DNA of 64,000 bases from Takakia lepidozioides (Eukaryota; Plantae; Bryophyta), in contig CM060733.1 in assembly GCA_030704615.1 (NCBI GenBank), forward strand, positions 32,426,001 to 32,490,000, read 5' to 3'. This document shows, one piece after another, positions 21,656 to 50,449 of this stretch. A program made the translations under genes and the position numbers. A model generated the notes under the pieces. The model saw only the letters and a list, made by a program, of their open reading frames with translations, did no database searches and was not told where the DNA came from. Position 1 is the stretch's first letter; each line of letters begins with the position of its first letter.

Positions 21656-23782
21656 CTAAGTTGTAGTATGCTGTGGATCCAACTGCAGAAGGCGATTTGC
21701 CACGTGTTGTGCTAGCTCTACATTACCATGAATTCTGCAGGCACCAAGCAAGGCTCCCCACACCCCAGAATCTGCTTGGATCGGCATTTCCTTAATGAAA
21801 GCATGTGCCTCATCCAACAACCCTGCACGGCCCATAAGATCCACCATGCAGCCAAAATGCCCCAACATAGGTGTGAGGCCATGATCTTGACTCATGGATT
21901 CAAAGTAGCGACGGCCTTCATCCAGTAGGCCTACATGGCTACATGCAGAGAGAAGAAATATGAAGGTGATACAGTCTGGATTCAAACCCTCCTGTTGCAT
22001 CTGTTCAAACAGTTGAAAGGCCTCCCTGCAATTTCCATGCTGAGCATAGCCAGCAGTCATCACATTATATGATACCACACTTCGTTCAGCCATCTTATTA
22101 AACACATTGCGTGCATCCTTTACACTCCCACATTTTGCATACATGTCGACAAGGGCAGTCTCCAGAATGAGATCTGGGGCAATTCCAGCTTTGCAGATGT
22201 CAGCATGGACCTCTTTGCCCTTTCCGAAGGATGCCAGACTGGCGCATGCATTGAGAACGGAAACGAATGTGATCTTGTCAGGTGTCACACCTTCCCGTAT
22301 CATGAGCTCATAGATGTCCAAAGCCTCCCTACCATTCCCGTGCTGAGCATATCCTGCAATCATTGCACTCCATGACACCACATTCCGGTGAGCCATATTG
22401 TCAAACACTCGACGTGCATCCTCAATGCTCCCACATTTGGCATACATGTCAGCAAGTGCAGTCTCCAGAATGATATCTGCCGCAACTCCAGCTTTGTGGA
22501 TGTCAGCATGAACCTCTTTGCCCTTTCCCAGGTCTCCTATGGTGGCACAAGCATTGACAATGCAAATGAACGTTACCCTATCAGGCGTCATCCCTTCCCA
22601 TATCATCCGCTCATAGATCTCAAAAGCATCCCTCCAACATCCATGCTGAGCATATCCTGCAATCAATGCGCTCCATGAGACCACATCTCGTTTAGCCATA
22701 GTGTCAAACACTTGACGGGCATCCTTCATGCTCCCACACTTTGCATACATGTCAGCAACGGCAGTCTCCAAAATGATATCTGCCCCAATTCTAGCTTTGC
22801 TAATGTCAGCATGAATGTCTCTGCCCCTTTTCAGGGCTTGAAGGCTGGCGCACGCATTGAGAACGCAGAGGAATGTGACCTTGTCAGGTGTCACCCCTTC
22901 CCATATCATTTGCTCATACATCTCCAAAGCCTCCATACCACACCCATGCTGAGCATATCCTGCAATCATTGCGCTCCATGACACCACATTCCGTTGTGCC
23001 ATATTCTCAAACACTTGACGCGCATCCTCTATGCTTCCACATTTGGCATACATGTCAACAAGAGCAGTCTCTAGGATGATATCTGCCCCGATTCCAGCTT
23101 TGATAATATCAGCATGGATTTCTTTGCCCTTTTCCAGGGCCTGAAGACTAGCACACACACTGAGAATGCAAGTGAAGGTGACCCCAGTGGGAGTGACCCC
23201 TTCCTGCATCATTTGTCTATAGATCTCAAATGCCTCCCTACCATACCCATGCTTCGCATATCCTGCCAACATTGTGGTCCACGTATATACATCTCGTTGA
23301 GGTATTTTGTCAAACAATTGCTGTGCATCCACCATGCTCCCACTCTTTGCGTACATGTTGACAAGGGTGTTAAGTAGAAAGATGTTTGGCTTGAATTGAC
23401 AGTGGATAACCTGGGCATGCACCTGCTTTCCCATTTCTAGGTCTTTAATTCTGATGCACTCCTGCAAGAGGCGCACATAACTGTTGGAGTCTGCTGAGAT
23501 GCCTTGTTGATTCAAAATATGCAGCGCCTCTTTCAGTTGTCCTGCCTTACATTGTGTGCTTACGTCCCCACAAGTGCCAGAAGAGTTCTTGTTGACTCCC
23601 TCTACTGGTCCTCTTTCAAAAGTAGCAGTCATGGAGTAGATGCCTGACTCTGACACCTGTGCCTGATGCAGCCCTGCCATCCTGCATGACTCAAAACTGT
23701 CGGTTACACAGACAAAGTCACCTAAGGTATGCCAAAGTTCATTGATACTTGAAAGAACGTGAGGAGAACAGCCTGTTGCCAT
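21656..23782 (-). CDS. PLS-class PPR protein ORF (708 aa) ending in the E region at a premature TAG
   Basis: Repeated P-L-S triplets (VVSWSAMIAGYAQHG / PDKVTFLCVLNACA / LETALVDMYAKCGS) followed by WGALLGACRIHGNVELA. The TAG replaces the Tyr of YVLL. The true start is probably in upstream exons. Confidence 0.92.
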   Translation of the reverse strand: MATGCSPHVLSSINELWHTLGDFVCVTDSFESCRMAGLHQAQVSESGIYSMTATFERGPVEGVNKNSSGTCGDVSTQCKAGQLKEALHILNQQGISADSNSYVRLLQECIRIKDLEMGKQVHAQVIHCQFKPNIFLLNTLVNMYAKSGSMVDAQQLFDKIPQRDVYTWTTMLAGYAKHGYGREAFEIYRQMMQEGVTPTGVTFTCILSVCASLQALEKGKEIHADIIKAGIGADIILETALVDMYAKCGSIEDARQVFENMAQRNVVSWSAMIAGYAQHGCGMEALEMYEQMIWEGVTPDKVTFLCVLNACASLQALKRGRDIHADISKARIGADIILETAVADMYAKCGSMKDARQVFDTMAKRDVVSWSALIAGYAQHGCWRDAFEIYERMIWEGMTPDRVTFICIVNACATIGDLGKGKEVHADIHKAGVAADIILETALADMYAKCGSIEDARRVFDNMAHRNVVSWSAMIAGYAQHGNGREALDIYELMIREGVTPDKITFVSVLNACASLASFGKGKEVHADICKAGIAPDLILETALVDMYAKCGSVKDARNVFNKMAERSVVSYNVMTAGYAQHGNCREAFQLFEQMQQEGLNPDCITFIFLLSACSHVGLLDEGRRYFESMSQDHGLTPMLGHFGCMVDLMGRAGLLDEAHAFIKEMPIQADSGVWGALLGACRIHGNVELAQHVANRLLQLDPQHTTT

Positions 23783-23852
23783 ATATCAACAGAGTTACAA
23801 AACGATGGGCTGTCATCTACTTGGAGGAAGAAACTGTTTGAATGGAACCACT

Positions 23853-27345: not shown

Positions 27346-28181
27346 TGTTGGAAGTAATTAAACATATCTAGAAGACTAAGAGTCTTGAAGGCCAAAGGTT
27401 TAGAAGTCTAAGAGACTATCTTGTTTAACTCACCTTTGGAAGGTGAATGGCTAGAAGGTGGATGGTCACCATAGTGGAAGTGGAAGTGATCAAGTAGGAC
27501 TTTCTAAAGACCTTCTTGTACAAGCTCGGGGGTGAAGCCACTAGTCTAAGTGTAAGAGTATGATGGTGGTTTCTATGGTTGGGAGGAGAGCTTTAGTTTT
27601 AGCTTTAGTCTAAGACTTTAGTTCTTGTTCATGTTCTTGCTCAATTCTAACATGGTATCAGAGCCATTCTTCTCTAGGTGAGAGTTGGTAGTTGAGATTG
27701 AGAGAACTTGATAATGGCTGGAGCGTCGTCTTCTAGCAATCCTCCTTCTATGTCTATGACGAGTGCATTAGATGTGAGAGTGGAAGATTGATTCAATAGA
27801 GCTAACTATCAAACCTGGAAGTTTAGGATGGAGATGGTTCTTCTAGACAAAGATCTATGGGGAGTGGTTGATGGATCAGTCCCAAGACCTGACATTATTG
27901 TTGGCCAAGCCATATGGGATAGGAAAGATCAGAAAGCAAGAGCTAGCATCATCACAAGCTTGAGAGACAATCAGTTGCATCTCATTATAAGTGCTAAGAA
28001 TGCTAAGGATGTTTGGCACAAACTAGCAAGCATATATGAGACGAAGGATGTGACATCGCAAGTGTATGCGACGCAAAAGTTCTATGGTCTGAAGATGACC
28101 GAGTCAGACTCAGTTGAACAACACTTGAATTTGTTTTGTGTGTTACGAGATCAACTAGTCTCTGTGGGAACTAATGTGACT
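27346..28181 (+). mobile_element. Ty1/copia 5' part: full LTR (27346-27652), tRNA-iMet PBS, gag N-terminus
   Basis: LTR TGTTGG...CTAACA; PBS TGGTATCAGAGC at 27653; gag NYQTWKFRMEMVL...LWGVVDG...WDRKDQKA...LVSVGTNVT, truncated at 28181. Confidence 0.92.
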
Positions 28182-29270
28182 TGACTGGGGCATAATAGTA
28201 TTCATTCCACAACTTCTCCTCATCTTTGTTACTTGTTTTTTGATACTTTCCTGTTGTCACATTGGCAGTATCATGTCAAAGTCACTCCAAACTAGATTCA
28301 CTCAACCAGCTAACTTGCAGAATTCAACATGGAAATTTAGGGCCGATTCTGGATAGAGGGAAAAACAAGGTGAAATGTGTTGAATAAGATGTCTTCATTA
28401 GCAGTGTCTGATTTTATAAATTGTGTCGCTGCTGCCAGTTGACCATCTACCCATGCAGGTTTGTTGTAGCTATAGAGTCAATCTGGAGCTTGATTAGCAG
28501 CTGACAGTGACGGTGTGAAGTTCTTCCATAAAACACCCCAACCTAGGACTTAACAGTAGTTCCAATTTTGAATTGCAACTGCTTCTCTCTGTAGTCGAAC
28601 AAGCACTCACATTTTTGTCTCCATTGTCCCCCCCACTGACTGGGGTCGGGAAGTGTTCATCCCAAAGCTTCTCTTTGTCTTGTTATCTGTTTTTGGGTAC
28701 TTTCCTACTGCCACATCAGCAGTAACTTGTCAAAGTCACTCCAAACCACCCCACATCCACCCAACGAGCTAACTTACAGCGTTCAATATGCAAATTCAGG
28801 GCTGGGTCTGATGAGAGGGAAAAATAGGCTGAAATAGGTTGAAGAAGAAGGTGCCCTCACCACATTGTCCTCAACCTTGTGTCATGACCCATGGAGGATT
28901 TGACTGACCATGCACCCAAGATGACCTCTTGTGTGTGCGAGGTGTGTGCTGCTTCCACAGGGAATTGCGATCTGGAGCTTGAAATCCGGCCCTCTTGGAT
29001 GAATCTGGACCCACACTGCTCACTGCTCCTTCAGCTAACCATGCCTCTACACAAATCATGCATACATCCTTGCCTTGATGCCAGCAGCTGACAATAACAC
29101 TCTAGAATTGTTCCAGCAAACACCCCAACCCTACTTATCACACTAGTTACTATGCTGACTTGCGTCTGCTTCCAACAGGCATTCACCTTTTTGCCTGGAT
29201 TGTTCCACCATTGACTGGGGTCGGAACCGTATTCATTCCACAGCTTCTCCACATCTCTATTATTTGTTTT
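28182..29270 (-). pseudogene. Tandem degenerate OSB/PDF units (about three)
   Basis: EKLWNEYGSDPSQWWNNPGKK|gt (~29186-29252), IHPRGPDFKLQ (~28970-29003), EKLWDEHF (~28650-28680), SYNKPAWVDGQL (~28437-28472), DEEKLWNEYY..PSQ (28182-28225). Confidence 0.75.
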
Positions 29271-29289: not shown

Positions 29290-30223
29290 ACTTTCTTGAC
29301 TGGGGTCGTCTACAGTGAAAGGTCGTAGAGACGTTTAAGATATATTGGCGCTTTCGGATATTTGGGCCATTCAGCACTGAACATATGTCTATGCTTCACG
29401 TAGTTCTCATTGCTGAATTCCATGACCTTGTAAAACCTTCTTCCAAACAAAGCCAGCCCTATATCCGGACATTTTCTAACGGTCCAGTGTTCCAAAAGTA
29501 GACCTCAAAATGCTTAAGGACCCATTTCAGGAAGTCGTCCAACCCATTTCGGACTGTAAGCTTGAATTTTCCAGCGCACACACAAGGATGGGTCGCGGGA
29601 GGGGATGTCGGGCCATCTCGGAGGTAAACCTCACCAAGGTAACCGACATCAAGAACCAGGACGTAGTATCCTGGTCGAGATCCTTTCGGTCCCTCAGAGA
29701 GGCGATACCAATCCAGTGGGTTCACAGATTTGTGATAGTCGATCGGAGGGTGAATCATATCATCATGTGGAATAACAGAACAATTAATTTATTTTGAAAA
29801 CTAGAAGAAGGAGAAAGAAGAACATAGCTAAGATGGTTATGAGGTATATACCCGTTTCGGGGAGGGGTTCCGAATTTGCTGCTGTTGCTGCTCGCTCTCT
29901 TTTCCTTCACGGTGAGCAACGACCATCTCCGGCTCATCTCCTCCATCTCGCAACGTCGACTGGGCAGTGGAGGTTGTTTGTTTGACCGGATCAGTTGGGC
30001 TGGCCCTTATTGTTAAGTCCACCTGCCTCCTCACTGTTTGAGTCGCAATGGATTATGTCCGGGTTTGTGTGATTTCCTCCAATTTCGGTTCATGGATCTA
30101 TACGAGTTTTCTTACCGTCAGTCACATGTAAAGTTCAAGAAGATGAGAAATATTAAGATACAGATCAGGTATTGCCAAAAACACAACCAGAACACAACCA
30201 GATGCAATACACACAATTTGTTC
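29290..30223 (-). pseudogene. Distal exons of the unknown multi-exon gene interrupted by the Ty3 insertion
   Basis: Minus-strand ORF pieces at 29310-29758 and 29837-30034; contains the 24-bp palindrome (29952-29975) that is also found right of the Ty3 element. Confidence 0.45.
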
Positions 30224-30227
30224 CATT

Positions 30228-30583
30228 TGTCAAGTTAAATAAACACAGTGTGAAACTAACTAGAATAAAGTTAGTTATTTGTATTTAACACTTGGATTTA
30301 GTTCAAGTGTTAAGTCAGGTGTCAAGTTTAGCTTGATACCTGAACCATCTTATCTTCACGAGAGCGTCAGTCGTGCGGCTCATCTCTCTCGAGTTGAGCC
30401 TGCACGACCGAGCTCCCTCGCTGCTTAGCATCTGAGTGTACTTATGGAGGGAGAGTAGGATGTTGTGGGGTGGAGTCCCCATAGCTTGGGGTGCCCCTGG
30501 CTCGACTCTTATTTTAACGAGTGATTGTATTGTATTTCTTGTTTTGTGTCAACAGAGACAGTGTGAGTTTAGTTTTCATATCA
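30228..30583 (+). repeat. Terminal repeat X1 (356 bp)
   Basis: Matches 40354-40709 with about 6 substitutions by eye. Confidence 0.95.
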
Positions 30584-30597
30584 CTCGAGAGAGATGA
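30583..30597 (+). promoter_or_regulatory. Self-priming PBS-like site
   Basis: ACTCGAGAGAGATGA is the exact reverse complement of TCATCTCTCTCGAGT (30380-30394) inside the LTR; no TGG tRNA PBS is present. Confidence 0.75.
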
Positions 30598-30958
30598 ATT
30601 TGCATCTGTGAGTGCTAGAGGTGAGTTTAGTTTTAGAACTTGTGGTTTTTGTTTTGAAAGTGAGAGAAGAAAATTATGGTGGTCTGTAGATTATGTTTGT
30701 GACAAGCTGGTTGGAGACAGAGAAGTGATTATCTGTGTTCAGGTAATCTTTAGTTAGAAAGATGTCAAGTTTGGCCACTGGAGCGATGGTTAGAAAGCGC
30801 GGTGAAGCCTTCTATTGTCTATCAGCTTTATCATCGTTGTTGCCATCATAAGGCTGACTTAAGTTGCCAACGGTGTGTCTGGCCAAAGTTGGCACGACTG
30901 GTTTATGAAGGGAAACCACGGACAGCCTGCCTGACCGTGGAGCTGCAAATAAGATAAT

Positions 30959-31306
30959 CTATATTGAGTGAGGTTTCTGGATCGAAGGCCGAAAGATGTG
31001 TAGTGTGCCAGCAACAGGAGTAGTCGAATTGGACAAATAGCAACCAGATATCTTGAGAGGTTGTTCATTCGGTGCCAAGCCTAATGTTTGTCTGTACACT
31101 CCTTCGAAACCTCCTTCCGTCAGTAGTCTGGTTACGTAAGTAATCCTTCCCCAGGCAGAGTCTGTCATAGAGGGCCCAGCTCGTAAGTGGCCCAGACATC
31201 TTCCAGCCGTATGCATACAGATGGTCAAGCTCTCAACTATGTGATCTTTGGGACGAGTCCTTTCCAACTGCGAGCTGCTATATGGACTACTTGGCTGCCC
31301 CCCCAA
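30959..31306 (-). pseudogene. GEM: Captured GEM-like/GRAM-domain gene fragment
   Basis: HLRAGPSMTDSAWGRI...LLTEGGFEGVYRQT...LKISGCYLSNSTTPVAGTL matches the recalled GEM/FIP1 family consensus (HLKTGPS..DAA.GRI...EGG.EKIFRQTF...CYLST..GPV.G.L). Confidence 0.8.
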
Positions 31307-31943
31307 ACAGGAGGGAGGGGCAACAAAGCCAGTCGGCTGTTCATCGACATGTAAGATGCTCTCATACTCCGGAGCTCCATGAGCGGGCTAAGATGCGGCC
31401 AATTAATATTGCAGGGAGTCGAATTGCGATTAGCAGACTCTTCCATAACTGGAGCTCCAAAACCTGGTGCAAAGGGGTCGAACTCTGCTGTTGATTGCTA
31501 ATATTTGGGTATGACACAAAATCACTTGAAAGTGGACTAGGCATGTGGCGTGCGGCTGATCAATTCTGTAGTTCATGGTCTCCTCAAATCATTTTCGAAC
31601 TCGTGACTATGTGTGAATGAGAATGGGGCGTGGTTTGTTCAAAGTTGAATATTGGTGGAAGAGATCGTGCTAGCATCCATCTAAGCTGCTATGGGGCTGT
31701 TACAGGATCTTTAACAAGAGCAGCAGCCATGAGAGAGCTAAATGGAGCAAGCCGTCGTTTCATTTTCATTAATCAAGCTCGATATGGTATCGGCACCAAT
31801 GGAGGACGAATAGCTAGCTCCATCGACGAACCGGCCTGCAATGGTGGAGCTGCAAACAGAATTAGCTTTGATAAGAATTGATGTTGATGGTCTGATGTAC
31901 CTGGCCCACTCGCCGTGGCTGGGATACTTAGTCATGGTCTTGT

Positions 31944-32414
31944 TCAAAATGGCTGAGGGAGAAAGACGATTGTGCGTTGAGGACCGGCAATCCCTACACA
32001 ACAACCCCAAAAATTAAGACCTCCAATCTCACGATGCTGCCATCCAAACAAGAAGCCGGACAAGTTGAGTGCAACGAAAGGCACCAGTAGAGCTTTCAGC
32101 AGGTTGATATGCCAGTTTGTTTTGTCCAGGATCAGCAAATACACAACAACAATGGACGCAAACCTCTGGAGAGTCTCTGTCAATTTGAAGGCAGCCCCAA
32201 TATCGGCAGCGATATGCACGCCCAAGCTACGGAGAGCCTGACCCGAGACGTGCATATCGAAAGCCATACTTTTTGCACCGACGCTCCGCATGAGGTCACA
32301 TTCAGTGCGAATCCTCGTAGACCTGCCTGCATTGCTACACGATTCATGTGAAACTGAAGACCTCGGGTATCTGTTGCTGCGTACTCTCCAAATTAGAACG
32401 AGCAAGATGACCAT
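31944..32414 (-). pseudogene. COR413: Captured COR413 (WCOR413) cold-acclimation gene fragment
   Basis: LQRFASIVVVYLLILDKTNWHINLLKALLVPFVALNL matches the recalled COR413-PM motif YLLILDRTNW.TN.LT.LLVPY. Confidence 0.82.
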
Positions 32415-32914
32415 GCTTGCGGGAAGCAGCTAGCACGATCGTGGTCACATGTTCCAAAGATGACCAGTAGGGAACTCAGGGAACTGGGAACCAGTGACCA
32501 GGTACTTTGGGTGTAGTTTAATTTTTTTATTAAAAAAATCCCTCTATGATCAAATTTAAATTTTATAGAGCCTGGTTGGTCATATCTTTGTCAAATGAGC
32601 TCCGTTTGACTCAGTTTTTGGGGGGATAGCTGCAGAAAGGGGAAATCTATGTATCTAGACCTGGTTTTAGTTTTTTGGACTCTGCTAAAAATCTATGGAA
32701 TTTTTTGAGTGTGAATGTGCTATGAAAGATCCACAATTCTGTTTCTAGAACCTGTTGTGGTCTACATGAGAGACAAATCTGGGGATGTCCCCCTTGTATG
32801 GCTGGGGGAAATGAGGACGTAATTGAAGGGCAGGTCTCTTCTCTTAGCCTGTGCACACAAGGGGACAAGATTTATGTTTCTCAAGGAACTCAGACTGATT
32901 AGAGTGGAGAGCAG

Positions 32915-34300
32915 TTGGACGAGTTGATTGCATACTGGGAGTCAGGCATTAGCAATAGACAACAAACTGCTGTAGTTGGCGTTGAGGGCCTCAATATTGC
33001 TTTGGACAATGAGAACTCTGTTGGAGCAAGCAGTTCTGCTGCAGTAGGTGAAATACCAAAGTGGGTGGAAGCTAGGCTTGGAACACAGCCAAAGACAGCC
33101 CCGGGGACCAAGGTGTTTAGCCACAAGGCCGTGGTGTACTGGAGCAGAGGAGCAGGAGCTACACAAGTTTTTGCAGCCGGACACCCTGCCCTCCACACGA
33201 GGCAACCACGAGCATTAGCAATGAAAAGTTTGTTCTGCTTGAAGGAGATGCAATCATTCGCAATGAGGACACTCGCAACCGTCTCAAAGCTTTCAAGTTG
33301 AGAGACTGTTAGACCCTACCTTTATTTTCTTTAGTGTTCAGTGAGCGGGAGATAGGGGAGTATTGCTTTGTCTCTACCTGGCAGAGAGAGGAGGAGGGTT
33401 GGTTAGAGCGAGCTACTGTAGCTTGGGATAAGGTTAGTAACAGGTTTCTGGACATAGATATACCTCCTACACCTTACTATCATGCAGAGCGAGGCACTTT
33501 GAGAGAAGTCTGGCAGTTGATAGCATAGATCAAGATTAGATCTTGCTTGGTCGGGCCTCTATTCTTCCCCTCCATCTTTTTACTATTTTCATTACTTTGT
33601 ACTTGTAGTTGTCAAAGCCTCTCTTGGTGGAGGCCAGTCAGTCCGGGGTTTTGGGCTGGGATATTCTGCAGGATCAGCACTGCAGATGGATTTTGGTGTG
33701 GGGGTGTTGTTGTTTTGATTTCTTGTGTTTGGATCCCCCCCAACGCCTGCATGCTTGACTATGCGCCATGTTGGTTTTGTGTGGGCGCTTGCTTTCATAG
33801 GGATTAGGCCGGATTTGATCACCGGTCAATCCTAGAGTATGTTGTCGGTGGTGAGGCTGGAGTGATGACCAGCAAGACCACCAATGTTTCTTCTATGGTG
33901 AGACTGGGTTGATGACTAGCCAACCATAGGAGTTCTTGCGGTGGATGCAGGTGCAGGTGCCCTGAGCCACTGGGATATGACCCAAATTCCATGGAGCTTA
34001 CAGAGGACCTCAGGTGCAGAGGCCAGTAGCATCTTTTGCAACCCAGCAGCAACCAGGGGTGATATGTTGGACATGTAGAGGACCTCATGTCAAGAAAGAT
34101 TGCCTAGAGAGTGGCAAAAGGCCGGCACAAGCACAGCCTGCACAGTTGCAGTGTGGGCATTGTGGCAAGTATGGGCATGGAGATGCCCAGTGTTATGACT
34201 TGCACCTTGAGTTGCGGCAAGGCCAGTTCCAAGGGAACTATGGTGCCCGAGGACGAGGTGGAGCACCTCAGAGAGGACGAGGTGGTCAGGCATGAGGTGT
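32915..34300 (+). pseudogene. Ty3 gag, degenerate
   Basis: Zn knuckles CWTCRGPHVKKDC and CGHCGKYGHGDAQC followed by an RG-rich stretch; the upstream ORF pieces are broken. Confidence 0.7.
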
Positions 34301-34534
34301 GAGACGAGGGCAAGCACAGTATGGCCAAGGACATGGAGGTCAGGGCGTTGACCAAGGCATGGCAACCGGCTTCAGCAACTAGAGCAGAGGCTTGCTGCCA
34401 TGGCCACAGCTCAGGTGGTATCAGCTCCAAGACCTGAGGGTCCACCTCCTGTTCCTCCTCAGCAGCGTCATCCTGACGGAGGAGACAAAGGAGGCATGGG
34501 ATTTATGTGTGGGGCAGCACTACCACTAGTGTAG

Positions 34535-35545
34535 GTGGAGTCTGCTGCAGCCGTCACTCGAGGAGCAGCACGAGTTCCTGAGCCACGAGGTGCAGAGGTG
34601 AAGTTAGATCCACAGCGTGGGAAGGCAAGCCGTCAGGCTAGGTTGCCTCAATCATTCATCTTGGGAGAGACAGTGTCGACGACATCCATGGCACCTAGTT
34701 CTCGCCCGACAGATAAAGAGGCCGTTATTGTGCCATTGGGGAGAGCTACACGTACAGCACTAGCACCGGCTGCCAAGGCTAGTGCAACCAGTGTGTTGTT
34801 GGGGGCAGCCACCTCTGTGTGTCAAGCCCCACTGTTCTTGGCAACCATGATCGCGACGCCGGGGATAAGACCAGCTGTAGTGTTCAGACTAGCAGCAACA
34901 CTCTGCGAGAGTGGGGAGGTCACTTCATCTTTTGCGGAGTTAGTGGAAGGTATAGTGGCAGAGGGATCCTTGGATTTGAGGGTCAAGACTACCACGGCTG
35001 CGCCATGGCAAGCTGCAGCTGCCAGGTTGACAGAGCTGCCAGCTAGGCCAGCCTTTGAATGCGCAATGGTGACACCTGGCGTTGTCTTGTTAGACAACCA
35101 GGATGGCATTTTCTCTTTGAGTGGACCGGCAAGCAAGAGATACCGGCCACTGCGGGTCTTGTTAGACTCGGGAGCTCAGTCACTGATGTTGGGCAGAGCT
35201 GCTATTGCAGGTTTGGGCCTCATGGAAGCGGATATGGAGCCTTGTCCTTTCCAGATACATACATCTCTGGGAGGATCAGAGCAGGCTCGGGGCATGACAC
35301 GGCGTGAGTTGGTCATTAGACTACAGCTGGATCATCCTATAGATGGCTCAGTGATGCGAGCCAAGGCCATTGTGACAGATGCGGTCTCTTACGATGTCCT
35401 CGTTGGTGGGGCAATGGTATATCCCATGGGCTTCACCCTGGATTTTTGGGATGAGTCAATATCCTACATGCCTGGATGGCAGTCAGGGGATGGTCGTCGT
35501 GTACAACTCCCTGTGACCTTCATTGGGGGTGTTGCTGCTGCCTAG
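34535..35545 (+). pseudogene. Ty3 aspartic protease region
   Basis: VLLDSGAQSLM and YDVLVG motifs. Confidence 0.85.
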
Positions 35546-35859
35546 CGGGGCAAGATGCCAACACTAGCAGCCTTCACAGCTGCAGTTAGTTGGCCTGGAG
35601 AGTTGCTGGAGGGCAATGCCCATGCAGAGGATGTGCCACTTCCAGCAGAGCAGGATGACATGCATGGTACGACGGAGTTGCCTGCCATGGTTGCTCACAC
35701 TTCATTGTGGGGTACGAGCAAGGATTTGTAACAGGCTACTGACAGGTGCAACAAGCCTGGTTAGAGGCCTTCGTACCGTCAGGAGAGGAGGAGAGTGCGG
35801 TGATTGCACCAGGACCACCTCAGTTGTCCCGCTAGGCAAGATGTGGCAGTGCCCGGATG

Positions 35860-36850
35860 AAGGCATATGCCTTCTGGACTTGTTTGGCGGGATCAGCACT
35901 GGATTGGCTGCAGTGCTGCAGGCAGGTGTACGAGTTCGACGTTACCTATATGTGGAGAGGGATGAAACTGCACGACGCGTCTCACTGTGCCATGTTGCTC
36001 AATTGGTGCAGCAGTACCCTGATTTGTTGCCAGTGTCTGCAGTTTGTGGATACCAACAAGCATTGCCAGCAGACATCTCTTTGCTGGGGGCGCATGGTTT
36101 GGAGCGGGTTGACCCTATTCACTTGGTAGTGGCAAGCTGGCCCTGTCAAGAGCATTCATCAGCCGGGCATGACATGGGTTACACGACTCAAGGTCACGCC
36201 TGTTTTGGGAAATGTTGAGGGTCTTACGCTATTTACAACTTCAGCAGACAGACTCTCCAACATATATCTTGGAGAATGTGCCATTGATGGATGATTCTCG
36301 GGCCAAGGTAATGGCCAGTGTGCATCAAGTGCGGTCTTGGTTTGGGTCAGCAGTGTTGCTGGATGCAGCTACAGTGGGGTCACAGGCTCATCGCCCACGA
36401 CTATGGTGGACCAACTTGATGTCACCTGCACTGCTCAAACGTGCATTTGAGGGGTGCAGTGGCCACCACACCTGACGGTGGATAGCATTTTGGACATAGG
36501 GAGACAGTCTTAGCGTGTGAGACACGATGACCGATCACCTTTGGCAGTGGTCAATAAGGTGGGTCACCCACGAGCCGCATTGCCTACACTGCTCAGTTTT
36601 CTAGGATCCCATGTTTTTCGGGATGGTGGACCTGGCCTCTTGTGGGATAGCCAGTTGCACCAATTAGTGGAGCCCAATGCTGACGAGCGCGAGCGGACGA
36701 TGGGTTTTACCACTGGTACCATAGCGGTGCCATCTCTTTCTGAGGCATCACGTCGTCAGGTGTTGGGGCAAGCAATGGATCTCAATTGCTTGACCTGGAT
36801 TATCAGCTTGGCTATGGCTGAGCAGCGTCGAGTACGGAGTACACATCCCG
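35860..36850 (+). pseudogene. C5 cytosine DNA methyltransferase (DNMT3-like) domain within pol, frameshifted
   Basis: Ordered motifs: I LDLFGGIS, II YVERD, IV SWPCQ, VI ILENV, VIII QAHRPRLWWTNL, IX ERERTMGF, X RRQVLGQAMD. Confidence 0.9.
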
Positions 36851-37239
36851 TGATGGTCTCCTTGCCTACCGAGACGGTATAGGCAGCGAGTGGGGGCGAA
36901 CAGGTGAGGACCACGAGATGCAGCCCGCATCCACGGCACACGTGGGAGGTGCTCGAGGTTCAAAAAGAGTTGGCAGCCAAGGCGGCCGTGATGGATGAGG
37001 TTGGGGATTTTTCTCAGGTTGAGGAGGTCCTCAAGGATGGGATGATGGGGCATGATGAGACATTGTCATTGACAGAGGAGGCAGTGGTCACTGCTCAAGA
37101 GGTTGTAGCATAGCAACCACGGGACGCGTCTTCTACGTCTAAGCCTGCTCGACTCAAGGTTGCAGTCACGGAGGACAACTGGGAGCCTGATGTTGGACCT
37201 ATAGTCACCGGAGGAGAAAGACGACATATACGGCGGTTC

Positions 37240-38600
37240 TTGAGGGCTTACAGGAACTTCTTTGCCTTCAGTTTGAAGGACTTAGGAGCACTGAAGGGTC
37301 AAGAGATTCGCATTGAATTGGCTACTGACACGCCAATCTTTTGGAGACCCTATAGATACAGTGACATGGAGAGGTCCTTGATTCAGATGAGAACTCAGGA
37401 CCTTTGGGAGGCTGGTTTGGTGGAGCTATCTGGGGGAGAGTATGCTTCAGCCACAGTGATGCCAGCCAAGAAGGATGTCTATGGCAATTGGACGGAGAGA
37501 CGTATGTGCGGTGATTACCGGCCTGTAAATCGTCAGACCAAGTCCGATAGGTATGCCATGCCGACACTAGAGGAGATCTTTGATGCCATTGGGCATGCCA
37601 AGGTCTTTAACACTTTGGATTTACGATCCGGATATCACCAATTGCCGATCAAGGAGGCGGATAAGCAAAAGACGACATTCTGGGGGATCAATGAGCACGG
37701 GAAGGATTGCCTATACCAGTGGCGGTTCTTACCATTTGGGCTTAAGAATGCTCCGGCAGAGTTTCAGAGAGTCATGGACAGGATTCTAGCAGGGTGGAGT
37801 TTGCTCGGTGCTACATAGATGACATCATCATCTTTAGTGCTACGGTGGAGAAGCATGAGAGACACCTTCAGGTGATATTTGAGCGCTTGAGGGCGCACGG
37901 ATTGAAGTTACATCCGGGGATGTGCAAGTTTTTCCACAACCAAATTGAGTATCTGGGTCACATGATATATCCTGGAGGATTGGGGATATAGCAGACTAAG
38001 GTAGAGTCCATTGCACAGATTCCACGCCCCACGGATGTGAGCCGAGTTCAAGCTTTTATGGGGTTAGCAAACTATTATAGACGGTTTGTTAAGGGATTTA
38101 GTGCCATTGCAAAGGCTCTAACCAAACTGACCAAGGTCAACCAGGAGTGGCAGTGGGAAGATGAGCAAGAACAAGCTTTTTAAGAACTCAAGGCGAGGTT
38201 GACCTCGGCGCCCATCTTGAGACGACCTATCAGGGGGCGTCCTTTTCAGCTGCATACAGATTGGAGCATGCTGGGGCTTGGAGCGGTGCTCACACAGGTG
38301 GATGATGAGGGAAGAGAGTTCGTAGTGGCTTATGCTAGCCGCTCAAACAACGCTGCAGAGTCTAAGTATAGCTCATATGAGGGAGAATGCTTAGCTGCAG
38401 TGTGGGCCGTGGCACACTTCAGGTGCTATCTATACGACAATCTCTTCACCCTTGTCATGGATCACCAACCACTCAAGTGGTTGATGGAGTCAGACAAGCT
38501 TTCGGGGAAGCTTGCACGGTGGGCACTCATCCTTCAAGAGTATGACTTTCAGGTTGTGCATCGACCGGGTTTGGTCATCGGGATGCAAATGGGTTGAGTC
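37240..38600 (+). pseudogene. Ty3 reverse transcriptase and RNase H
   Basis: RMCGDYR, LDLRSGYHQ, LPFGLKNAP, YIDD, YLGH; LHTDWS, VAYASR, EGECLA, DHQPL. Confidence 0.95.
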
Positions 38601-38899
38601 GCAATCCATGCACGAGCCAGCAGGATGACACTGGAGCTTGGTGGCATGGTGAGACGGACGAGGAGATGGTGCCCGGATGGCATGCATCTGCATTTCTGTG
38701 TAACTTGGTAGCGGAAGGCCAGGTTCGACCTGCAACAGGGATGACTATAGATCAAGTGTCTGAGGACCCTGAGGCCAGCAATGAGCAAGGTGGCGCCAAA
38801 GATATACATGAGGATTCAGTTGTGTTGGACTACCTCCGCACTGGAGACACGGCAGCCACTGTGACTGCCAAAGAGAGGGATCGGATCCTACAACGAGCC

Positions 38900-40007
38900 A
38901 AGAGGTTCAAGTGGGAGGAGACACACCTGCTCCGAGTGTGGGAGGATGGTCGAGTGATGATTGGCCTCACCCAACACAACGGGCACGTTTAGTGCGGCAT
39001 GACCATGAGGAGTTGGGGCATTTTGGGGTGCGACGCACTCATAGTCTACTGCAGGGGCAGTATTGGTGGCGTGCTATGCACACAGAGGTGCAACAATTTG
39101 TGGCTAGGTGCATGGTGTGTGACAGGGTGCATGCTTCATTCAACGCCCCTACTCCACAATTGCACCCTCTTCCCATCATGGGATTGGGCTACAGGTAGAG
39201 TCTTGACTTCGCAGGGCCATTGCCATTGACCATGCGCCACAACAAGTATGTGTTGGTGATGGTGGAGCACTTCTCCAAGTGGATCGAGTTGGTTCTATTG
39301 CCTGATAAGGCTAGTGAGGGAGCTGCGTATGTATTCTTGGATTGTGTACTTAGCCGATTCGGTGCTCCAGCTGAGGTACTCACGGACCAAGGGAGAGAGT
39401 TCTTAGGGGAGTTTCAGGCTTTGTGTGACAAGGCCTTGGTAGACCACCGCACCACTTCTCGGGATCATCCTGAGGCCGATGGCTTGGCAGAGAGGGTTGT
39501 TCAGACAGTAAAGAGGGGTTTGCGCAAGTATGGCTTGTAGAAGGGACACCTAGGAGATTGGGACCTTCAGTTACCCTGGTTAGCCATGGGTTACAGGTTC
39601 AGCAAGCAAGCATCACTTGCCTCCTTCTCACCATACTTTCTTCTCTTTGGCTGAGAGCCGGATTTGCTATATCCATTCGTAGAGAAGCTGCTACAGTTCT
39701 TAACCTTGATGATCCGGACGTGTGGGCACGTGCATGTGATCAGCGTGCAGAGTTGTTCAAGAAAGTCATGCCCATGGCTTTCGAGAATCTTGCCATTGCA
39801 CAACATCGTGATACGTTGAGGTATGCTACCATACGTGGTGGGGGCTATCGTCCTGGGATCTGGAGATTTAACCCTGGTGACTATGTTTATCTGCAGCAGA
39901 CTGCTCCTACGACCTTGGATGTGACTGCAAGACGTATGGGATGTTTGACTCCACCTCTTGAGTTGGTTCCTGATGGGGATTGGTTATGTCCGCATTGCAT
40001 TGGATAG
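38900..40007 (+). pseudogene. Ty3 integrase with a C-terminal PHD-finger remnant
   Basis: HEELGHFG...CMVC, VLTDQG, DGLAERVV; ends MGCLTPPLELVPDGDWLCPHC, the second half of a PHD finger. Confidence 0.88.
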
Positions 40008-40266
40008 TGGGAGTGGATACAACCATGGAAGGCTAACAAGAAATGCAAGGCCAAGCTACTAGGAGACCTTGAACACACGAGATCCTGGCTCAAGTTCACA
40101 GATTGCAAGACGGCGACTAACGATGGGGCTACCTTGTACCCGGCCTCTTGGTCTATACAGTTTGAGTACAATAGGGACAGTGATAGAGGACTTAGTACGG
40201 CTGTGGCTATTACATCTTGTAGCTATCTGGAGTTAAAGGGACCTATCCACCAGCTAGGGGGGCGAT

Positions 40267-40795
40267 TGTGGCAGACTACTTTATTGTCCATATATGTGTG
40301 GTGTAGTTTGGACAGCGATGTAGTTGTGTAGCGATACATATGCACACGACAGCTGTCAAGTTAAGTAAACACAGTGTGAAACTAACTAGAATAAAGCTAG
40401 TTATTTGTATTTAACACTTGGATTTAGTTCAAGTGTTAAGTCAGGTGTCAAGTTTAGCTTGATACCTGAACCATCTTATCTTCACGAGAGCGTCAGTCGT
40501 GCGGCTCATCTCTCTCGAGTTGAGCCTGCACGACCAAGCTCCCTCGCTGCTTAGCATCTGAGTGTACTTATGGAGGGAGAGTAGGATGTTGTGGGGTGGA
40601 GTCCCCATAGCTTGGGGTGCACCTGGCTCGACTCTTATTTTAACGAGTGATTGTATTGTATTTCGTGTTTTGTGTCAACAGAGACAATGTGAGTTTAGTT
40701 TTCATATCATTGTGGCAGACTACTTTATTGTCCATATATGTGTGGTGTAGTTTGGACAGCGATGTAGTTGTGTAGCGATACGTATGCGCACGACA
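40267..40795 (+). repeat. 3' terminal block Y1 (40267-40351)-GC-X2 (40354-40709)-T-Y2 (40711-40795)
   Basis: Y1 and Y2 are 85-bp direct repeats differing at 2 positions; X2 matches X1. Confidence 0.95.
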
Positions 40796-40833
40796 CATTT
40801 ATAATGCTTAAAGACACCATAAATCTCCAGGTG

Positions 40834-43800
40834 TCATTCGTTACCTACATCCAAATTGACATGTTGGGAGACACTTTGAGAGCGAGTTGGGCTCTGAGTT
40901 CGGCCTCTGCCTCCGCTGTTTTTTCTGGGAGACGGGCTTTTAGTCCTGGCTTTGTCACCACTGTCCATTTTTGCGGGGGACGGGCTCTTAGTCCTCCCTT
41001 TGTGTCCGCTGTCTTTTGTGGGACACGGGCTCTTTGTCCTCGCTCTCTCTACCATCTCTTTGGCGGGAGACGGGGACATTGGCGCCGGCTCGTCCCCTTC
41101 TACAGGTTTGAACCAGTCGTCTGCACTCCCAATAAAATTGCCGCGCACCTCGATTGAGCTCACCTCCGCACCCCTTGATGGTGAAGCAAGATTACTCTTA
41201 GTTCTCTCGCTTGAACTCGACGAATCCCCATCCAGAATCACGACATTGTGGACCGCAACGTCTTGGGTGATGTTCTCGATACCATCATGTGACTGAGTTC
41301 TGAAGTCTTGAATCACATCTAGGTGTCCAGCCTCCCAACTGTTGGCATTGTCACCATCGTGGCCCTCTTTGTCCCCGTTACCATCGATGCCCTCGTCCTC
41401 CTCTCCGTGTTCAGAATGTCCGCCTCCTTCTTCCAAGTCTTCATCTTCCTCCTCCTCATCCTCATCATCGTCTCCGCCGTCAACCTCTTCAGCAACATTG
41501 TCATTCTCAATTTGAAGCTTTTTAAAATTTGCTTCAACTTTTTCTTTGCAAAACTTTTTTTTGGTTGAGTGGTTGATGTCAAGCACTCGAATATTTCTTG
41601 CCTACAGATAAACCCAGTCAGTAAAACGGAGGACGTGTTTGATCAAAAATGTAAAATTCGTATTTAAAATGCGAAAAGGTTTTACACTTACATGAAGGGC
41701 GTACGTCAACATCACGCCTCCGATAGCGGACATCCCGTCTCGACAAAACAGGGAGGCCAAATAGTCGTATGTGTTAGCTTGTAGCTCATGATTATAAGTC
41801 ATGCACTCTTCTTCAAAAGCTGATGGCTTCTCAGAGGGCCCTTCCAGAATCGGCTGTATTGGCTCGATTAACAATACGGTGGAGATGTGCTCGTCCGGAT
41901 TTTGCATCTCCTCAGTTGTCGCTGGAAAAACATAGTCCAGGCACAGTACAGTCCAAGAGAAAGTCTTCGTGCTGTTTTTGTAAATATTTTCATACTCTCC
42001 CGGAACATAAAATCCCTGACGGACAAGATACGATGTTCTTCCGGGACCATTTTGGATGTAGAAGACCAGATTGGCCGAGGACGGTTGCATTGAGAAGAAA
42101 AAACAAAAGCACTTGTGTTCATTTTCTGAGCCACAAAGGCCTCCAATATGTTCACATAATCCTTGGACTCAAATACGACATAGTCGTCTTCAGAAACTGT
42201 ATTGACGAACACCATCGCTATGTTGTCAAACCGTTTCTTCGGTGCGAGTCACAGACGGGACTTGGCATCGGTGAATTTTGTTTCTCCACCCATGATAGCG
42301 TAATGAGTCTTGAAACTCGCTGAAATAATCGCCATGGCATCCTCTCTATCCTCATAAGCTTTCTTGATGGAGGACACGTACTTAACAAAAGCGGCCGTGA
42401 GTGGTTTTGTCTCCATGTTCATCTTGATCTTGCTTTGGATGTAATCCGTCCCCAGTTTGTCTTTAAATGTTGAGAACTCTGCCTTATTGAAGTGGTACTT
42501 TCTCTTCACTTCATGCCACTCGTCCTTAGTGTACGGTTCCGTGCACTGTTTGCTCCTCCACCCCAACACTTCCATCACATCGTCGACAATAAACCGGCGC
42601 ATTTTCATGTCGTCTATGTACTTGGTCATGCCTTGAATTGATTTGTCTTGACCTTTGTAATCTCGAATGGTCAATTTCAGGTCTAGGATTTTCTGCACAA
42701 CTTTTATCAGCTGCCATCTGTTCAACCCTTGCAGCTTTGCGATAGCAGATTTCATGAGCTGTTGCTGTTCACCCTTGTACTGTATCCCAAGCGGGTCGAG
42801 TAGCTTTCTCTGCTCCCAGTTTTTGAAAACATCTTCCCAGATCTTCCGAACGTCGTTGTCGCAAAGTACCAGGACCATTGCCTCCTTAATGCTACCCATT
42901 TCAAGTATCAAATGACAGGCAAACATGAACTCCTGCACATTCATTCAGGGATAAATTAGTTGTCACTCCGACAACCGAAGTATTCTTTAGCATAAAATGA
43001 ATGTGAATAGTAGATTTTGATTCCATAAATGCATACCTTCCATTGTTTCGTCTCGGACTTGGTGGTTTGATCGTTGTATTTCTTTGGCTTCCCCCTCAGG
43101 TTGAATAACATTCGCGCATGCGCAACTTTCTCCGGCATTGTTGTATCAAACTTTTGCGCCTTATTGGGATCGTTGAGGAGCTTTGACAACTTCAGGAGCC
43201 TTTGTTCATCGGTAGACCATACAATCTTCGTAGGCCACTCCCGGTAGTACTCCTTCACTTCGCTGTCGGCAAGATCCTCGAGAAGTTCCTGCTACAGTTA
43301 ATGTAAAATGGGTGAGAGAGTTGAAAGTGTGGGGATATATCCAATTTTGTAGTTCAACACCAACCTCCACTGCCCAGTGGAGGTTCGTTAAAAGAGAGGT
43401 CTGGGAGGAAATGAAGTCCATTACCTTTGCTACCACGATGGTGTGTTGTCCACCAATTACGAAAAACCTTGATATGTCCATCTCCTTCCATTGCTTCGGT
43501 CGCGATGAAGCAATCTTCTCTGGATTGGAAGGGTTGATTGGCGCAAGATACACCGGATGTTTGGAGTCGAACACATGAAGTTGGAAGAGTCGCCCTTTCA
43601 CTTCGTCCTTATGCTTGATATTTAACGGCCTGTAAACCATGCTCCTTGGAGCTAGTTCCATCATGGAAACCTTCACAAGGAAGGTACTCTCGAATCCGAA
43701 TGGAAATACATCATTGTATTTCTTCGTGAGCCTCTCCTCCATCTTCTCGCATTTTTCATTATCAAAAATCTCCCCAGCTTTAGGTCTCTTGTTATCTAAC

Positions 43801-44432
43801 ATCAATGCTGGATCCTGATCCTCATTTTGTTTCTTCTTTCCTGCGGAAGTCCCGGCCTCATTGTCATCATTGCCGGCTGTCGACGACTTGCGTTTTCCCT
43901 TCTTTGGCTTTGATGCTTCCTGTAGTGCTCGCTTCTTGCGAATGTCGTTCCCCATTGCGTGCAGAAGATCCAGAAAAATACTCCAGGCCCTCGACAAACC
44001 TACGTCTGTAAATACTGAGCCCTCGTCTGGAAATCTAAAACCCAGTGCAACGCATTCACTCATCAACAACTTGTTCAGACGACCCTCCTCCACTTTGAAA
44101 CCAAACGTCCTGGGGGTTCTCGCATCCTCATGCAGGAACAAAACCAACATCGGGTTTTCCTCTTCAGATTCAAGCTCTATATTGAGAGCTTCTGCGTATT
44201 TTAAGTGTGTTATTACTCCAAGACTTCTGTAATGAAAAGACAGTTTGTGATCAGGAGGTGTACCGACAGGCACGATGCCCCAATCTGTCACCTCTGGGTT
44301 AAGCTCAAAAATAGCGGTATGCTCAGTTTTGAAATGTGAGGACTTCCGGCATACGAATGCGCCACAAATATCTCCAATCAATCCCGGGATGCAATCTGGT
44401 GGTGTAGGATGTCTTCTGTTACAACCAAACAC
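40834..44432 (-). pseudogene. Large unknown multi-exon gene: ParB/Srx-like segment, helical region, possible degenerate MTase-like fold, acidic tract, RTKSPSP repeats
   Basis: Consecutive minus ORFs (408, 100, 231, 115/162, 250 aa) linked by GT-AG sites, stops and a frameshift; FFVIGGQHT resembles the ParB-like IDGQHR motif. Confidence 0.5.
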
Positions 44433-44609
44433 AAATTCATTAGATAATCAAATAACATGATCTCTCTTACTAGCATCCATCATTCCAAAAATGAGAACCT
44501 CCACTGGACAGTGGAGGTTTGTATGTACGAGTCTTTCTACATGAAATGGGAAATCCTCCATATTTTACAGATGTTGAAGAAAAAAACTTTAATGAAAAGG
44601 AGGCTCAAG

Positions 44610-48300: not shown

Positions 48301-49589
48301 TGTTCATCCATGTGGTTGATTTCATCAACAGATATTATGGCAATTGTGACTTCATCTGACAGTTCCGATAGATGTAGTCTATACTCCACCCTCATACTCC
48401 AATTTAATTCCAATTGTTTTTTTATCAGTCCCAGTGTAGATCCAAACATTGACTTTACTTTTTCAATCCATATTGTTTTCTCTGGAGAGTCGAAACGGAC
48501 AAGGTGGGCCCACGGGGGCATTTCAGACGGCATGCAGAAGTGGGGTCAACGACTCCGGAGTCATAGCAAAAATCCGGGCTATTTAATTAATTGCATAAAT
48601 ACATAAAATTTGAAAAAGTGAAAATTACAAGTGGTTCTAATTACTGCACATGCGACTAGAAAATTTTCATTCATAATTTGATTTATGGAATAAAGATATT
48701 TATTCATTAAAGTGAATATGTAGTCGACTCAACGATTCCATGAACCACTGCGCATTGATTGCACCCGTGATTGGGGGCCACATTTGTTGACGTGTGTTTC
48801 ACAAAAACAGGTAAAGAAAATGTGGCCTTGGGGAATATATATTTTAATATGTACTGCCTCCACCTGGAAGTGACATGGAAAGTCCATGGTGACATCGTGA
48901 AAACTGGAATTGTAGGGTTTGTCGTTCTGAACACCGCCCTGGTGGACATGTATGCCGAATGGGGTCGAAGATGCGAAGGTAGTGTTCAACTGTGGCTCAA
49001 CGAGATGTGGTGTCGTGGAGTGCGATGATCGCATTGGCAGCAAGGCAAGGATGTATGCATGATTGTGCAGAGGCAGTGATAGCTGAAGGATCAAGATAGA
49101 GTGTAGGTCCATATTCATCCAAGAGGGTCGGATTTCAAGCTCCAGATTACCTATGGATCCCTCTGAAGGATAGCTACAAGAAACCTCCAGGGGTAGATGG
49201 TTAGCTGGAAGCGGCAGCTGTAGCGGCACAGTTGATAAAATCAGGCACCTCAACCATGACCACAACTTCTGGAAGAGGATCAAGCGAGGGAGTCCACAAT
49301 GCCTCTTCTGGCACTTATGGGCATGTGAAGATGCTTTATGAGGCAGACAGACTGAAAGAGGCTCTACAAACTTTAAACCAAAGAGGCATTTCAGCAGATG
49401 TAGATACGTATGTGTGTCTCTTGCATAAGTGCATCAAGATGAAAGGCCTATAAGTTGGAAAGCAGGTGCACACTCACATTGTCCAAAGTGGATTCACGCC
49501 GAGCGTTTTTCTACTCAACAACCTTGTCAACATGTATGTTAAGGGGAGCATCATGGATGATCACCAAGTGTTCAACACAAAATGCCTCA

Positions 49590-49760
49590 ATGACAGGTTG
49601 AAGGTTGTTCTCACCACTGCTCCAGTCCTTATGTTTCTCAATTTTCACATGTCTTTCAAGATGCAAACAAATGTTTATGATGTTGCCATCTCTGCTATTT
49701 TGTGTCAAATAGTTGATGGGAAGGAGCATGTCATTGCTCGTGCCTCTAAGAAGGACCAAA
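49590..49760 (+). mobile_element. Ty3 RT-RNase H connection fragment inserted in the PPR pseudogene
   Basis: LKVVLTTAPVL...QTNVYDVAISAILCQ...EHVIARASK. Confidence 0.75.
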
Positions 49761-50449
49761 ATAGACGTTACCAGCACAGTTTTAGATAACTGCAATTGAT
49801 GGTGTCATCAATTAAAATTGAATTAACTCATTAAAACCAGCAAATATATATGTCATTAGATTCCCAGCTTCAAGACGCACCCATAGCAACTCTCCAATCA
49901 TGAATCTGATAAGAAATGACTCCGCTATGGACTTTTGAACACCGTCATTGTGGACTATTACCGCAATGAATGGAATTACAATGGACTCAAGTTCTCCTAT
50001 GTGCCATTGGAGTTTAGAGATAAGGTGGCCATTTTGGTCCACATCATAAGTATGGATTTGAAGTGGCAAAATCATTTGTCATTTGACTCATATAATAGGT
50101 GTTTTTTGAAAAGTCCATAGCTCATTTGTTTTTTGGATTTTGGGTGTCATTTGTTTTCTAGAAGTATAAAATTCTATAATCTTCAATGGCTAGGTCTTTG
50201 ATCACGTGGAATATAATGTTGGCAGGATTACCAAGCATGGGCGTGGTACAAATGCTTTGGAGACATGTGCGCAAATGATGCGCGAAGGGGTGGAGCCCAA
50301 CCACATCGCGTTTGTATGTGTTTGCAATGCGTGTGCAAGCCTGGAAAAGGGGAACAAGGTCCATGGTGACATCGGTCAAAGTTGGAATTGCACCGGATGT
50401 CATTTTGAACACTGCCCTGACCTGGACATGTATGCCAAATGTGGATGCA

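Follow-up and report, generated by a model that had tools for sequence, protein, structure and literature searches.

A decayed Ty3-type retrotransposon of Takakia lepidozioides with a DNMT3-type methyltransferase domain, a predicted self-primer and a split long terminal repeat

Retrotransposons carrying a cytosine methyltransferase (DNMT) are known from algae, and the role of the enzyme is an open question. The closest described case, KnitGypsy-Dnmt3 of Klebsormidium nitens, was termed an independent capture in the K. nitens lineage (PMC5890265; papers cited here by accession are referred to for the parts of them that were available to us). It is a Gypsy element with a non-permuted DNMT3-type domain, purifying selection and DIRS-like repeats together with Gypsy domains, and the review file of the same paper describes DIRS repeats as A1 and A2, with A2 lying between two B; the available parts of PMC5890265 do not work out how the element is primed, what its ends are or how it integrates. 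Here we describe a 10.6-kb Ty3-type element (positions 30228-40795, TGTC start, GACA end) in a 64,000-nucleotide stretch of Takakia lepidozioides DNA (contig CM060733.1, positions 32,426,001 to 32,490,000), called the window below. A first-pass annotation of the window had linked this element to the Klebsormidium one, and the link is supported; the DNMT3-type domain in a Gypsy element and the DIRS-like repeats are common to both. There are also two differences: the DNMT of KnitGypsy-Dnmt3 reportedly lies in the same open reading frame (ORF) as reverse transcriptase (RT), whereas here it ends ORF1 before a stop codon, and KnitGypsy-Dnmt3 is said to be lineage-specific, whereas the present relatives span bryophytes, Closterium, Mesostigma and chlorophytes. 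We infer a land-plant member of the Gypsy-DNMT3 elements with distinct priming, expression and integration; the readthrough-type stop, the self-primer and the split ends on which this is based were absent from the first-pass annotation. The whole scheme, in which the window copy is a decayed member of an old Ty3 lineage of green plants with a Gag-level DNMT acting on cDNA, stop-codon readthrough and a cut inside the long terminal repeat (LTR), seems to us reasonably probable.

That annotation was not aware of characterised embryophyte examples, and in the literature, with subscription journals and Repbase outside the scope, no report of a land-plant DNMT-Ty3 element or of this integration mode was found. 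This negative is limited, as the trees of PMC12344493 and bioRxiv 10.64898/2026.05.21.726589, which cite the Klebsormidium case as "streptophytes", might hold land-plant rows. Marchantia is unnamed in the searched text and supplements of PMC5890265, and in the main text of the Neumann et al. 2019 survey (PMC6317226) PHD, methyltransferase and Marchantia are absent as words.

The element belongs to Ty3/Gypsy by its domain order (protease, RT, RNase H, DDE integrase), its TG...CA ends and its 4-bp target-site duplication, but it does not have two complete LTRs at both ends; the LTR is split into two parts, A and B. Troyka was considered and rejected, as its CG...CG ends, 3-bp duplication and animals-only range are not matched. 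Contigs of sequencing runs X2 and X5 (4 of the 12 listed runs were examined) join 30223 directly to 40796, which is the empty site. The target-site duplication stands as follows.

30224-30227, + strand, target-site duplication CATT, left copy, matching the right copy and the empty site
40796-40799, + strand, target-site duplication CATT, right copy, matching the left copy and the empty site

The methyltransferase domain of the window copy and its motifs are as follows.

35859-36822, + strand, DNMT3-type C5 cytosine methyltransferase domain, broken (three frames, one stop), identified by motifs, Pfam and homologues
35874-35891, motif I, LDLFGG
35949-35963, motif II, YVERD
36138-36149, motif IV, WPCQ
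36272-36280, motif VI, ENV
36386-36418, motif VIII, AHRPRLWWTNL
36685-36708, motif IX, ERERTMGF
36751-36768, motif X, RRQVLG

All motifs that the first-pass annotation had listed, PCQ and ENV included, were located in canonical, non-permuted order from I to X with the catalytic Cys, spread over three frames. Frameshifts lie near 36190 and 36455 and a stop at 36511, so the window DNMT is a pseudogene. Its three pieces share 59-71% identity with Marchantia Mp_4g09160, and the occurrence of the motifs is thus not a matter of chance; against Pfam DNA_methylase only one single piece matched, at E 0.0076, below the curated cut-off. The ranking of DNMT types was done on the intact relatives P0005 and P0003 and on the DNMT alignment. 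The best PDB matches were DNMT3A (3e-24), DRM (5e-16), HhaI (2e-8) and DNMT2 (2e-7), and for a predicted model of an intact relative (pLDDT 88.9) Foldseek placed DNMT3A/B on top (E 1e-19). Profile and predicted fold thus support a DNMT3-type domain, as had been proposed, and not a DRM, DNMT1, DNMT2 or bacterial one, with DNMT3A as the best match. Among the full domains of relatives the catalytic Cys is kept in 209 of 210, and so is the Glu of motif VI (209/210). Host plant DNMT3 (PpDNMT3a/b, PMC6453930) has the same type of catalytic domain, but the element DNMT is fused to Gag-protease, is present in many copies and lacks DUF3444, which was absent from Pfam scans of P0008, P0428 and the ORF1 of the intact element L081.

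The DNMT is a family trait, with close kin in Marchantia, Calypogeia and Sphagnum and distant kin in Closterium, Mesostigma and chlorophytes. Of 871 candidate proteins, the first DNMT piece matched 50, of which 20 came from Marchantia, 3 from Calypogeia and 1 from Sphagnum, with 26 unnamed. The RT search returned proteins of Calypogeia, Marchantia, Sphagnum, Coleochaete, Closterium and Klebsormidium, several of which also carry DNMT and PHD. A profile search reached Mesostigma, Haematococcus, Chromochloris, Hariotina and Cymbomonas, and DNMT relatives scoring below 1e-30 formed 269 clusters at 50% identity. In a second organism (run X9), a 5009-nucleotide contig spans DNMT to integrase. Summed contig depth, which serves for contrast only and gives no copy number, was of about the same order for DNMT as for zinc knuckles and protease, and about 1000 times that of the cargo at 30736-32471. 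This spread argues against a Klebsormidium-specific origin of KnitGypsy-Dnmt3. The relatives show two layouts, with DNMT either preceding RT or placed between RNase H and integrase. The named chlorophytes belong to the second, and among such chlorophyte-type elements (P0175, P0335, P0276, P0363 and others) one has a G-patch and one a Tudor-like domain; the cluster of P0079, P0080 and P0087 is a second sub-lineage with one Calypogeia member and apparently has DNMT and RT in one ORF.

A one-off insertion of a host DNMT3, or an algal contaminant, might be suspected from a copy that is broken and carries captured host fragments. The first-pass annotation had named absence of the domain from sister copies and algal contamination as what would speak against it, and neither was found. 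The DNMT is common to sister copies and occupies the same place in relatives belonging to three bryophyte genera, DUF3444 is absent from the relatives, the empty site joins both flanks, and the window is land-plant DNA, with PLS-E PPR genes (303-nucleotide period, E motif), a Sin3-like gene and a COR413 fragment. We therefore regard this explanation as extremely improbable.

A quick tree of 89 selected DNMT domains places the window together with Marchantia, Calypogeia and metagenome loci in a group of 16 rows (SH-aLRT 100). The FastTree of 183 RTs puts it among the same taxa, in a group of 9 rows (support 98), with Coleochaete two nodes out. Two K. nitens RTs, whose records show no DNMT, lie inside the wider 90-row RT group (support 90). 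DNMT and RT distances correlate (Mantel rho 0.64, 87 rows), a value merely consistent with co-inheritance because kin share labels. Between families the DNMT is under purifying selection as judged from the codons (pN 0.20-0.25 vs pS about 0.7; dN/dS 0.11-0.18, with synonymous sites near saturation), and within the Sphagnum-type family dN/dS is 0.7-1.0, as for decayed copies. That family, whose DNMT is 83-93% identical to a Sphagnum troendelagicum protein (4 loci tested), makes up nearly all of the metagenome loci L001-L080, the best 80 of 125. The more distant L081 (DNMT 51% identical) is an intact element at 1-9285 of a contig whose ends overlap by 127 nucleotides, which may mean a circle or a collapsed repeat. 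That contig is filed under an uncultured cyanobacterium, so that L081 entered UniRef as bacterial, and is most likely eukaryotic contamination.

The coding parts around the DNMT show how it may be expressed.

34026-34217, + strand, Gag zinc knuckles, by sequence comparison
35069-35497, + strand, aspartic protease (LLDSGAQ at 35159-35179); intact relatives match Asp_protease_2 weakly
37111-37119, + strand, conserved stop of ORF1, TAG CAA CCA, with RT in the same frame; predicted site of readthrough, from relatives
37165-38123, + strand, reverse transcriptase (YIDD at 37812), frameshifted, Pfam RVT_1 4e-14
38274-38692, + strand, RNase H, Pfam RT_RNaseH 4e-36
38965-39938, + strand, DDE integrase, broken (H2C2; D 39205, D 39385, E 39490), Integrase_H2C2 1e-14, rve 4e-12
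39942-40004, + strand, PHD finger remnant, Pfam PHD E 0.004, whole in intact relatives

The earlier placement of the DNMT in pol between protease and RT is right as to its neighbours, the LLDSGAQ protease and RT, but the domain ends ORF1, and an in-frame stop (37111-37113) precedes RT. The DNMT closes the Gag-protease ORF, the named ORF1 proteins stop about 80 residues past it, and RT-integrase-PHD follows in frame behind a UAG-CAA-YCN stop. Of the 80 metagenome loci 27 have no RT start, and a TAR-CAA-C stop in frame with RT was present in 49 of the 53 that do. These 49 stops were TAG CAA CCC (29), TAA CAA CCC (17) or other (3), and the four loci without a conserved stop carry an insertion (two) or a point change (two). 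In tobacco mosaic virus (TMV) UAG followed by CAR YYA is the readthrough signal, and UAA is read through there too (PMC2754532). The window and L066 (TAG CAA CCA) and the intact L081 (TAG CAA TCA) resemble this signal; the Sphagnum-type family differs in having CAA CCC, and in all of them the site is downstream of protease and DNMT instead of separating gag from pol. No ATG lies near the stop in the window or L081, and three folds gave nothing convincing as a conserved structure downstream. From this sequence context, RT-integrase-PHD is likely to be made by stop-codon readthrough.

The ends of the element are built from the following parts, in the order A1-internal-B1-GC-A2-B2.

30228-30583, + strand, repeat A1, 356 nucleotides (TGTC...TATCA), 350/356 identical to A2
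30380-30393, + strand, predicted self-primer (RNA 5' end), 14-nucleotide perfect complement of 30584-30597, 0/5000 shuffles
30584-30597, + strand, predicted primer-binding site, no tRNA-type TGG, covarying with the self-primer in three families
40251-40265, + strand, polypurine tract CAGCTAGGGGGGCGA immediately 5' of B1, kept in Sphagnum-type loci and L081
40266-40351, + strand, repeat B1, 86 nucleotides with GACA end, left part of the LTR, 84/86 identical to B2
40348-40357, strand not applicable, palindrome GACA-GC-TGTC at the B1/A2 junction, putative integrase cleavage site, also in Sphagnum-type loci and L081
40354-40709, + strand, repeat A2, 350/356 identical to A1
40710-40795, + strand, repeat B2, abutting A2 (putative joined cDNA ends), with the element end GACA, 84/86 identical to B1

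Because the primer site stands directly after A and the polypurine tract directly before B, B-GC-A amounts to a conventional LTR, of which A would be the right part, holding promoter, R and U5. The complement between self-primer and site is 14 nucleotides in the window, 12 in L081 (1/5000 shuffles) and up to 16 in the Sphagnum-type family; the primer sequences differ among the three families, and each primer/site pair matches. In the Sphagnum-type family TATAAA lies about 30 nucleotides upstream of the self-primer. Tf1/Sushi and the plant element Tcn1 likewise have a self-primer with at least 10 bases complementary to a site just after the 5' LTR (PMC6317226), and the present element differs from them in its PHD finger instead of a chromodomain, its DNMT and its split LTR. 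We hold with strong confidence, on the matching primer/site pairs, that self-priming of the Tf1 type replaces the tRNA site here.

The insertions begin with A and finish with B. In nine loci the end reads tract-B-flank, and four of these show both ends, as A-internal-B with 4-bp duplications; the doubled form A1-internal-B1-A2-B2 was found in the window and in seven distinct loci whose B end could be located (L017, L034, L042/43, L055, L067, L069, L080). The 4-bp duplication is exact in 8 of 11 two-ended insertions and has at most one mismatch in all 11 (cross-pair control 0/110), and tests for 3-, 5- and 6-bp duplications gave 0 exact. The B/A junction reads GACA-NN-TGTC in all loci, L081 included, and NN is mostly GC. 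Integration via a site inside the LTR is thus highly likely from the sequences of ends and junctions. Other families with similar split repeats lie beside or nested with the main family (L049 16672-17324, L010 8097-9002), and the junction in L049 is GACA-GT-TGTC. A split LTR with an internal integrase site would also explain the "DIRS-like" repeats of KnitGypsy-Dnmt3. Foamy virus offers a parallel in that its integrase opens a palindromic CA..TG site in the 2-LTR circle (PMC1180852), but the viral palindrome is formed where the two cDNA ends are joined, and the provirus is colinear; that of the present element is internal to the LTR, and its insertions are permuted.

The A2|B2 joint was precise in 5 of 7 distinct cases. 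The imprecise ones consist of filler and tract bases (L055) and of nine primer-site bases and filler (L042/43), and together these variants look like the pattern expected of joined cDNA ends. Such a pattern is established for retroviral 2-LTR circles. A scheme like that of DIRS or Ngaro elements, in which the RNA would span A1-B2, the ends would be rebuilt from the B1-A2 junction and the A2|B2 joint would simply be inherited, has to be weighed at this point. It fits the layout, which equals the split direct repeats A1...B1 A2 B2 of Ngaro, PAT and VIPER (PMC6681497), as well as the term DIRS-like that de Mendoza 2018 gave to the Klebsormidium repeats (PMC5890265); it also accounts for the lack of permuted copies and for the five precise joints. 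Nevertheless, we consider it unlikely. The primer site after A and the tract before B define a conventional LTR B+A. Such a scheme would not lead one to expect A-internal-B insertions flanked by 4-bp duplications, nor joints that retain bases of the primer site or tract, and no tyrosine recombinase was found in the ORFs of intact relatives. Unlike Ngaro, PAT and VIPER, the element has a DDE integrase, TG...CA ends, 4-bp duplications, a polypurine tract and a self-primer.

The replication cycle that we propose would thus run through conventional cDNA. RNA would begin in A, with its 5' end priming itself on the site after A1, and plus-strand synthesis would begin at the polypurine tract before B, so that the cDNA would bear conventional LTRs B-GC-A; the case for these steps is strong. 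It is equally strong for the next one, in which integrase would cut GACA^GC^TGTC, lose GC and insert TG...CA ends. The A-internal-B form, a predicted dead end because it has no 3' copy of R, would come from a 1-LTR circle or from a linear cDNA that is cut at both of its sites. A 2-LTR circle cut at one site would yield A1-internal-B1-A2-B2, the form able to copy again, and this circle route is a probable origin of the doubled form, judging from its joints. Readthrough would yield far more DNMT than RT or integrase, a step with moderate backing. The weakest step is the last, in which DNMT, freed by protease at Gag levels and packaged, would methylate the cDNA or circle, and new copies would arrive pre-methylated; as the first-pass annotation had supposed, we slightly favour the cDNA as target.

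Two other roles of the enzyme were considered. With the same replication, the DNMT may protect: methylation of CAG/CTG in the palindrome, on one LTR of the circle or on chromosomal copies, would block integrase, give rise to the two-repeat form, which can be copied, and keep the host chromosome from being cut. Dam methylation controls the ends of bacterial IS10 and IS50 in a parallel way. The cleavage site remains intact in all two-repeat copies, and cutting appears confined to one of two identical sites (0/28 permuted). An excess of DNMT over integrase fits, and the junction variants (GT, AT, AC, TATC) are mostly transitions at these very cytosines. Those transitions are, however, explained by host CMT, which methylates CHG anyway, and plant DNMT3 prefers CG/CHH and avoids CWG (PMC6453930), so protection appears unlikely to us, about as much as the DIRS/Ngaro-like scheme. 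The DNMT might instead act elsewhere, on element RNA or on host chromatin in trans, or only bind nucleic acid in the particle. It would be made with Gag and so be present at RNA packaging, and RNA methylation has been raised as a possibility for DNMTs borne by LINEs. Yet the domain is nearer to DNMT3 than to DNMT2 (3e-24 vs 2e-7), the full catalytic set is conserved, and SymbioDIRS-Dnmt3 methylates CG on DNA (PMC5890265). We consider such a role still less likely than protection.

Several observations weigh against methylation of the cDNA and the scheme around it. KnitGypsy-Dnmt3 showed no methylation in yeast (PMC5890265), a negative that need not mean an inactive enzyme and would also suit a target other than DNA. 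CpG in the element is 0.49 vs 0.36 in a neighbouring PPR gene, so depletion is no stronger in the element, and CpG/CHG depletion fails to separate element from host methylation. In related lineages DNMT and RT share one ORF, or DNMT lies between RNase H and integrase, so bulk DNMT expression is not needed by all. The Sphagnum-type stop context CAA CCC is not the strict CAR YYA, and re-initiation is possible in that family because an ATG follows the stop directly. Of the 26 Sphagnum-type 5' ends in which the end of A was located, only 7 keep at least 10 complementary bases in place (4 more keep 9), and the self-primer lies inside a local hairpin in all three families. The circle model also predicts A-B-A-internal-B, but upstream A copies preceded by B were 0/28 (at least 3 pairs being duplicates), which is unexplained. 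Both trees were quick ones made without bootstrap and contained neither host DNMT3 nor KnitGypsy DNMT sequences, and independent support comes down to four families because L001-L080 are nearly all one family, with duplicates.

The window copy has at least 8 frame changes and 8 stops vs an A1/A2 divergence of 1.7%, which suggests that it moved when already defective. The D-to-E spacing (second D) of the integrase is 34 residues in three intact relatives. The window copy showed no capsid half of Gag, Pfam scans gave no chromodomain match after integrase, where the PHD lies instead, an Rfam scan of 30000-41000 gave a single match at chance level, and four scans of viral contigs found no relatives of the element. 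Two further features lie in its 5' part.

30650-32470, - strand, low-copy cargo, with a COR413 fragment (31947-32429) and a second host-like fragment (30962-31387), Pfam WCOR413 E 8e-15
33808-33837, + strand, 30-nucleotide hairpin-forming 5' leader motif, 29/30 identical to L081 8501-8530

Summed contig depth in run X1 was 440-610 for the cargo vs 2e5-1e6 for the rest of the element. Its orientation is antisense to the element, a poor fit to simple mRNA template switching. We take the fragment 30962-31387 to resemble GRAM/GEM proteins; Pfam gave no confirmation. The leader motif, whose hairpin carries TGATCA in the loop, joins two distant families, the window and L081, and was not found in L001-L080 at 5 mismatches; it is a candidate dimerisation or packaging signal. 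Another conserved non-coding motif, GGCGACTAACGATGGGGC, lies at 40100-40150 between ORF2 and the polypurine tract and is common to Sphagnum-type loci, L010 and L081. Outside the element there are PLS-type PPR genes and decayed tandem PPR arrays at 48800-55000 (+), 21656-23785 (-), about 900-1500, 5000-5200 and 28300-29270, a Sin3-like ORF at 17203-18498 (+) with two PAH domains and a 39-nucleotide tandem repeat, a DUF7869 ORF (7758-8486), a Copia gag fragment (27792-28184) and an NIF phosphatase-like ORF (55375-56094). The insertion target, at 40800-44450 (-), is a run of long ORFs without Pfam match that is moderately repeated in reads and is probably another transposon.

Taken furthest, the sequences would point to an unrecognised Viridiplantae-wide Ty3 lineage, self-primed, with an integrase site inside the LTR, in which only 2-LTR-circle insertions would be recopied and a DNMT3 at Gag stoichiometry would methylate the circle; we put this forward tentatively. 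If true, capture of the DNMT3 would predate land plants and perhaps the chlorophyte-streptophyte split, and Marchantia polymorpha would become a genetic system for testing self-methylation. Some annotated bryophyte "DNA methyltransferases" are transposon genes, and such elements, which have no paired terminal LTRs, would probably escape structure-based LTR finders. The end structure points to integration from circles, which are normally regarded as dead-end products, and the readthrough-type stop suggests that abundant production of the methyltransferase is selected for. Occurrence in Marchantia and Sphagnum brings the question of what the enzyme does into a model plant with methylation mutants.
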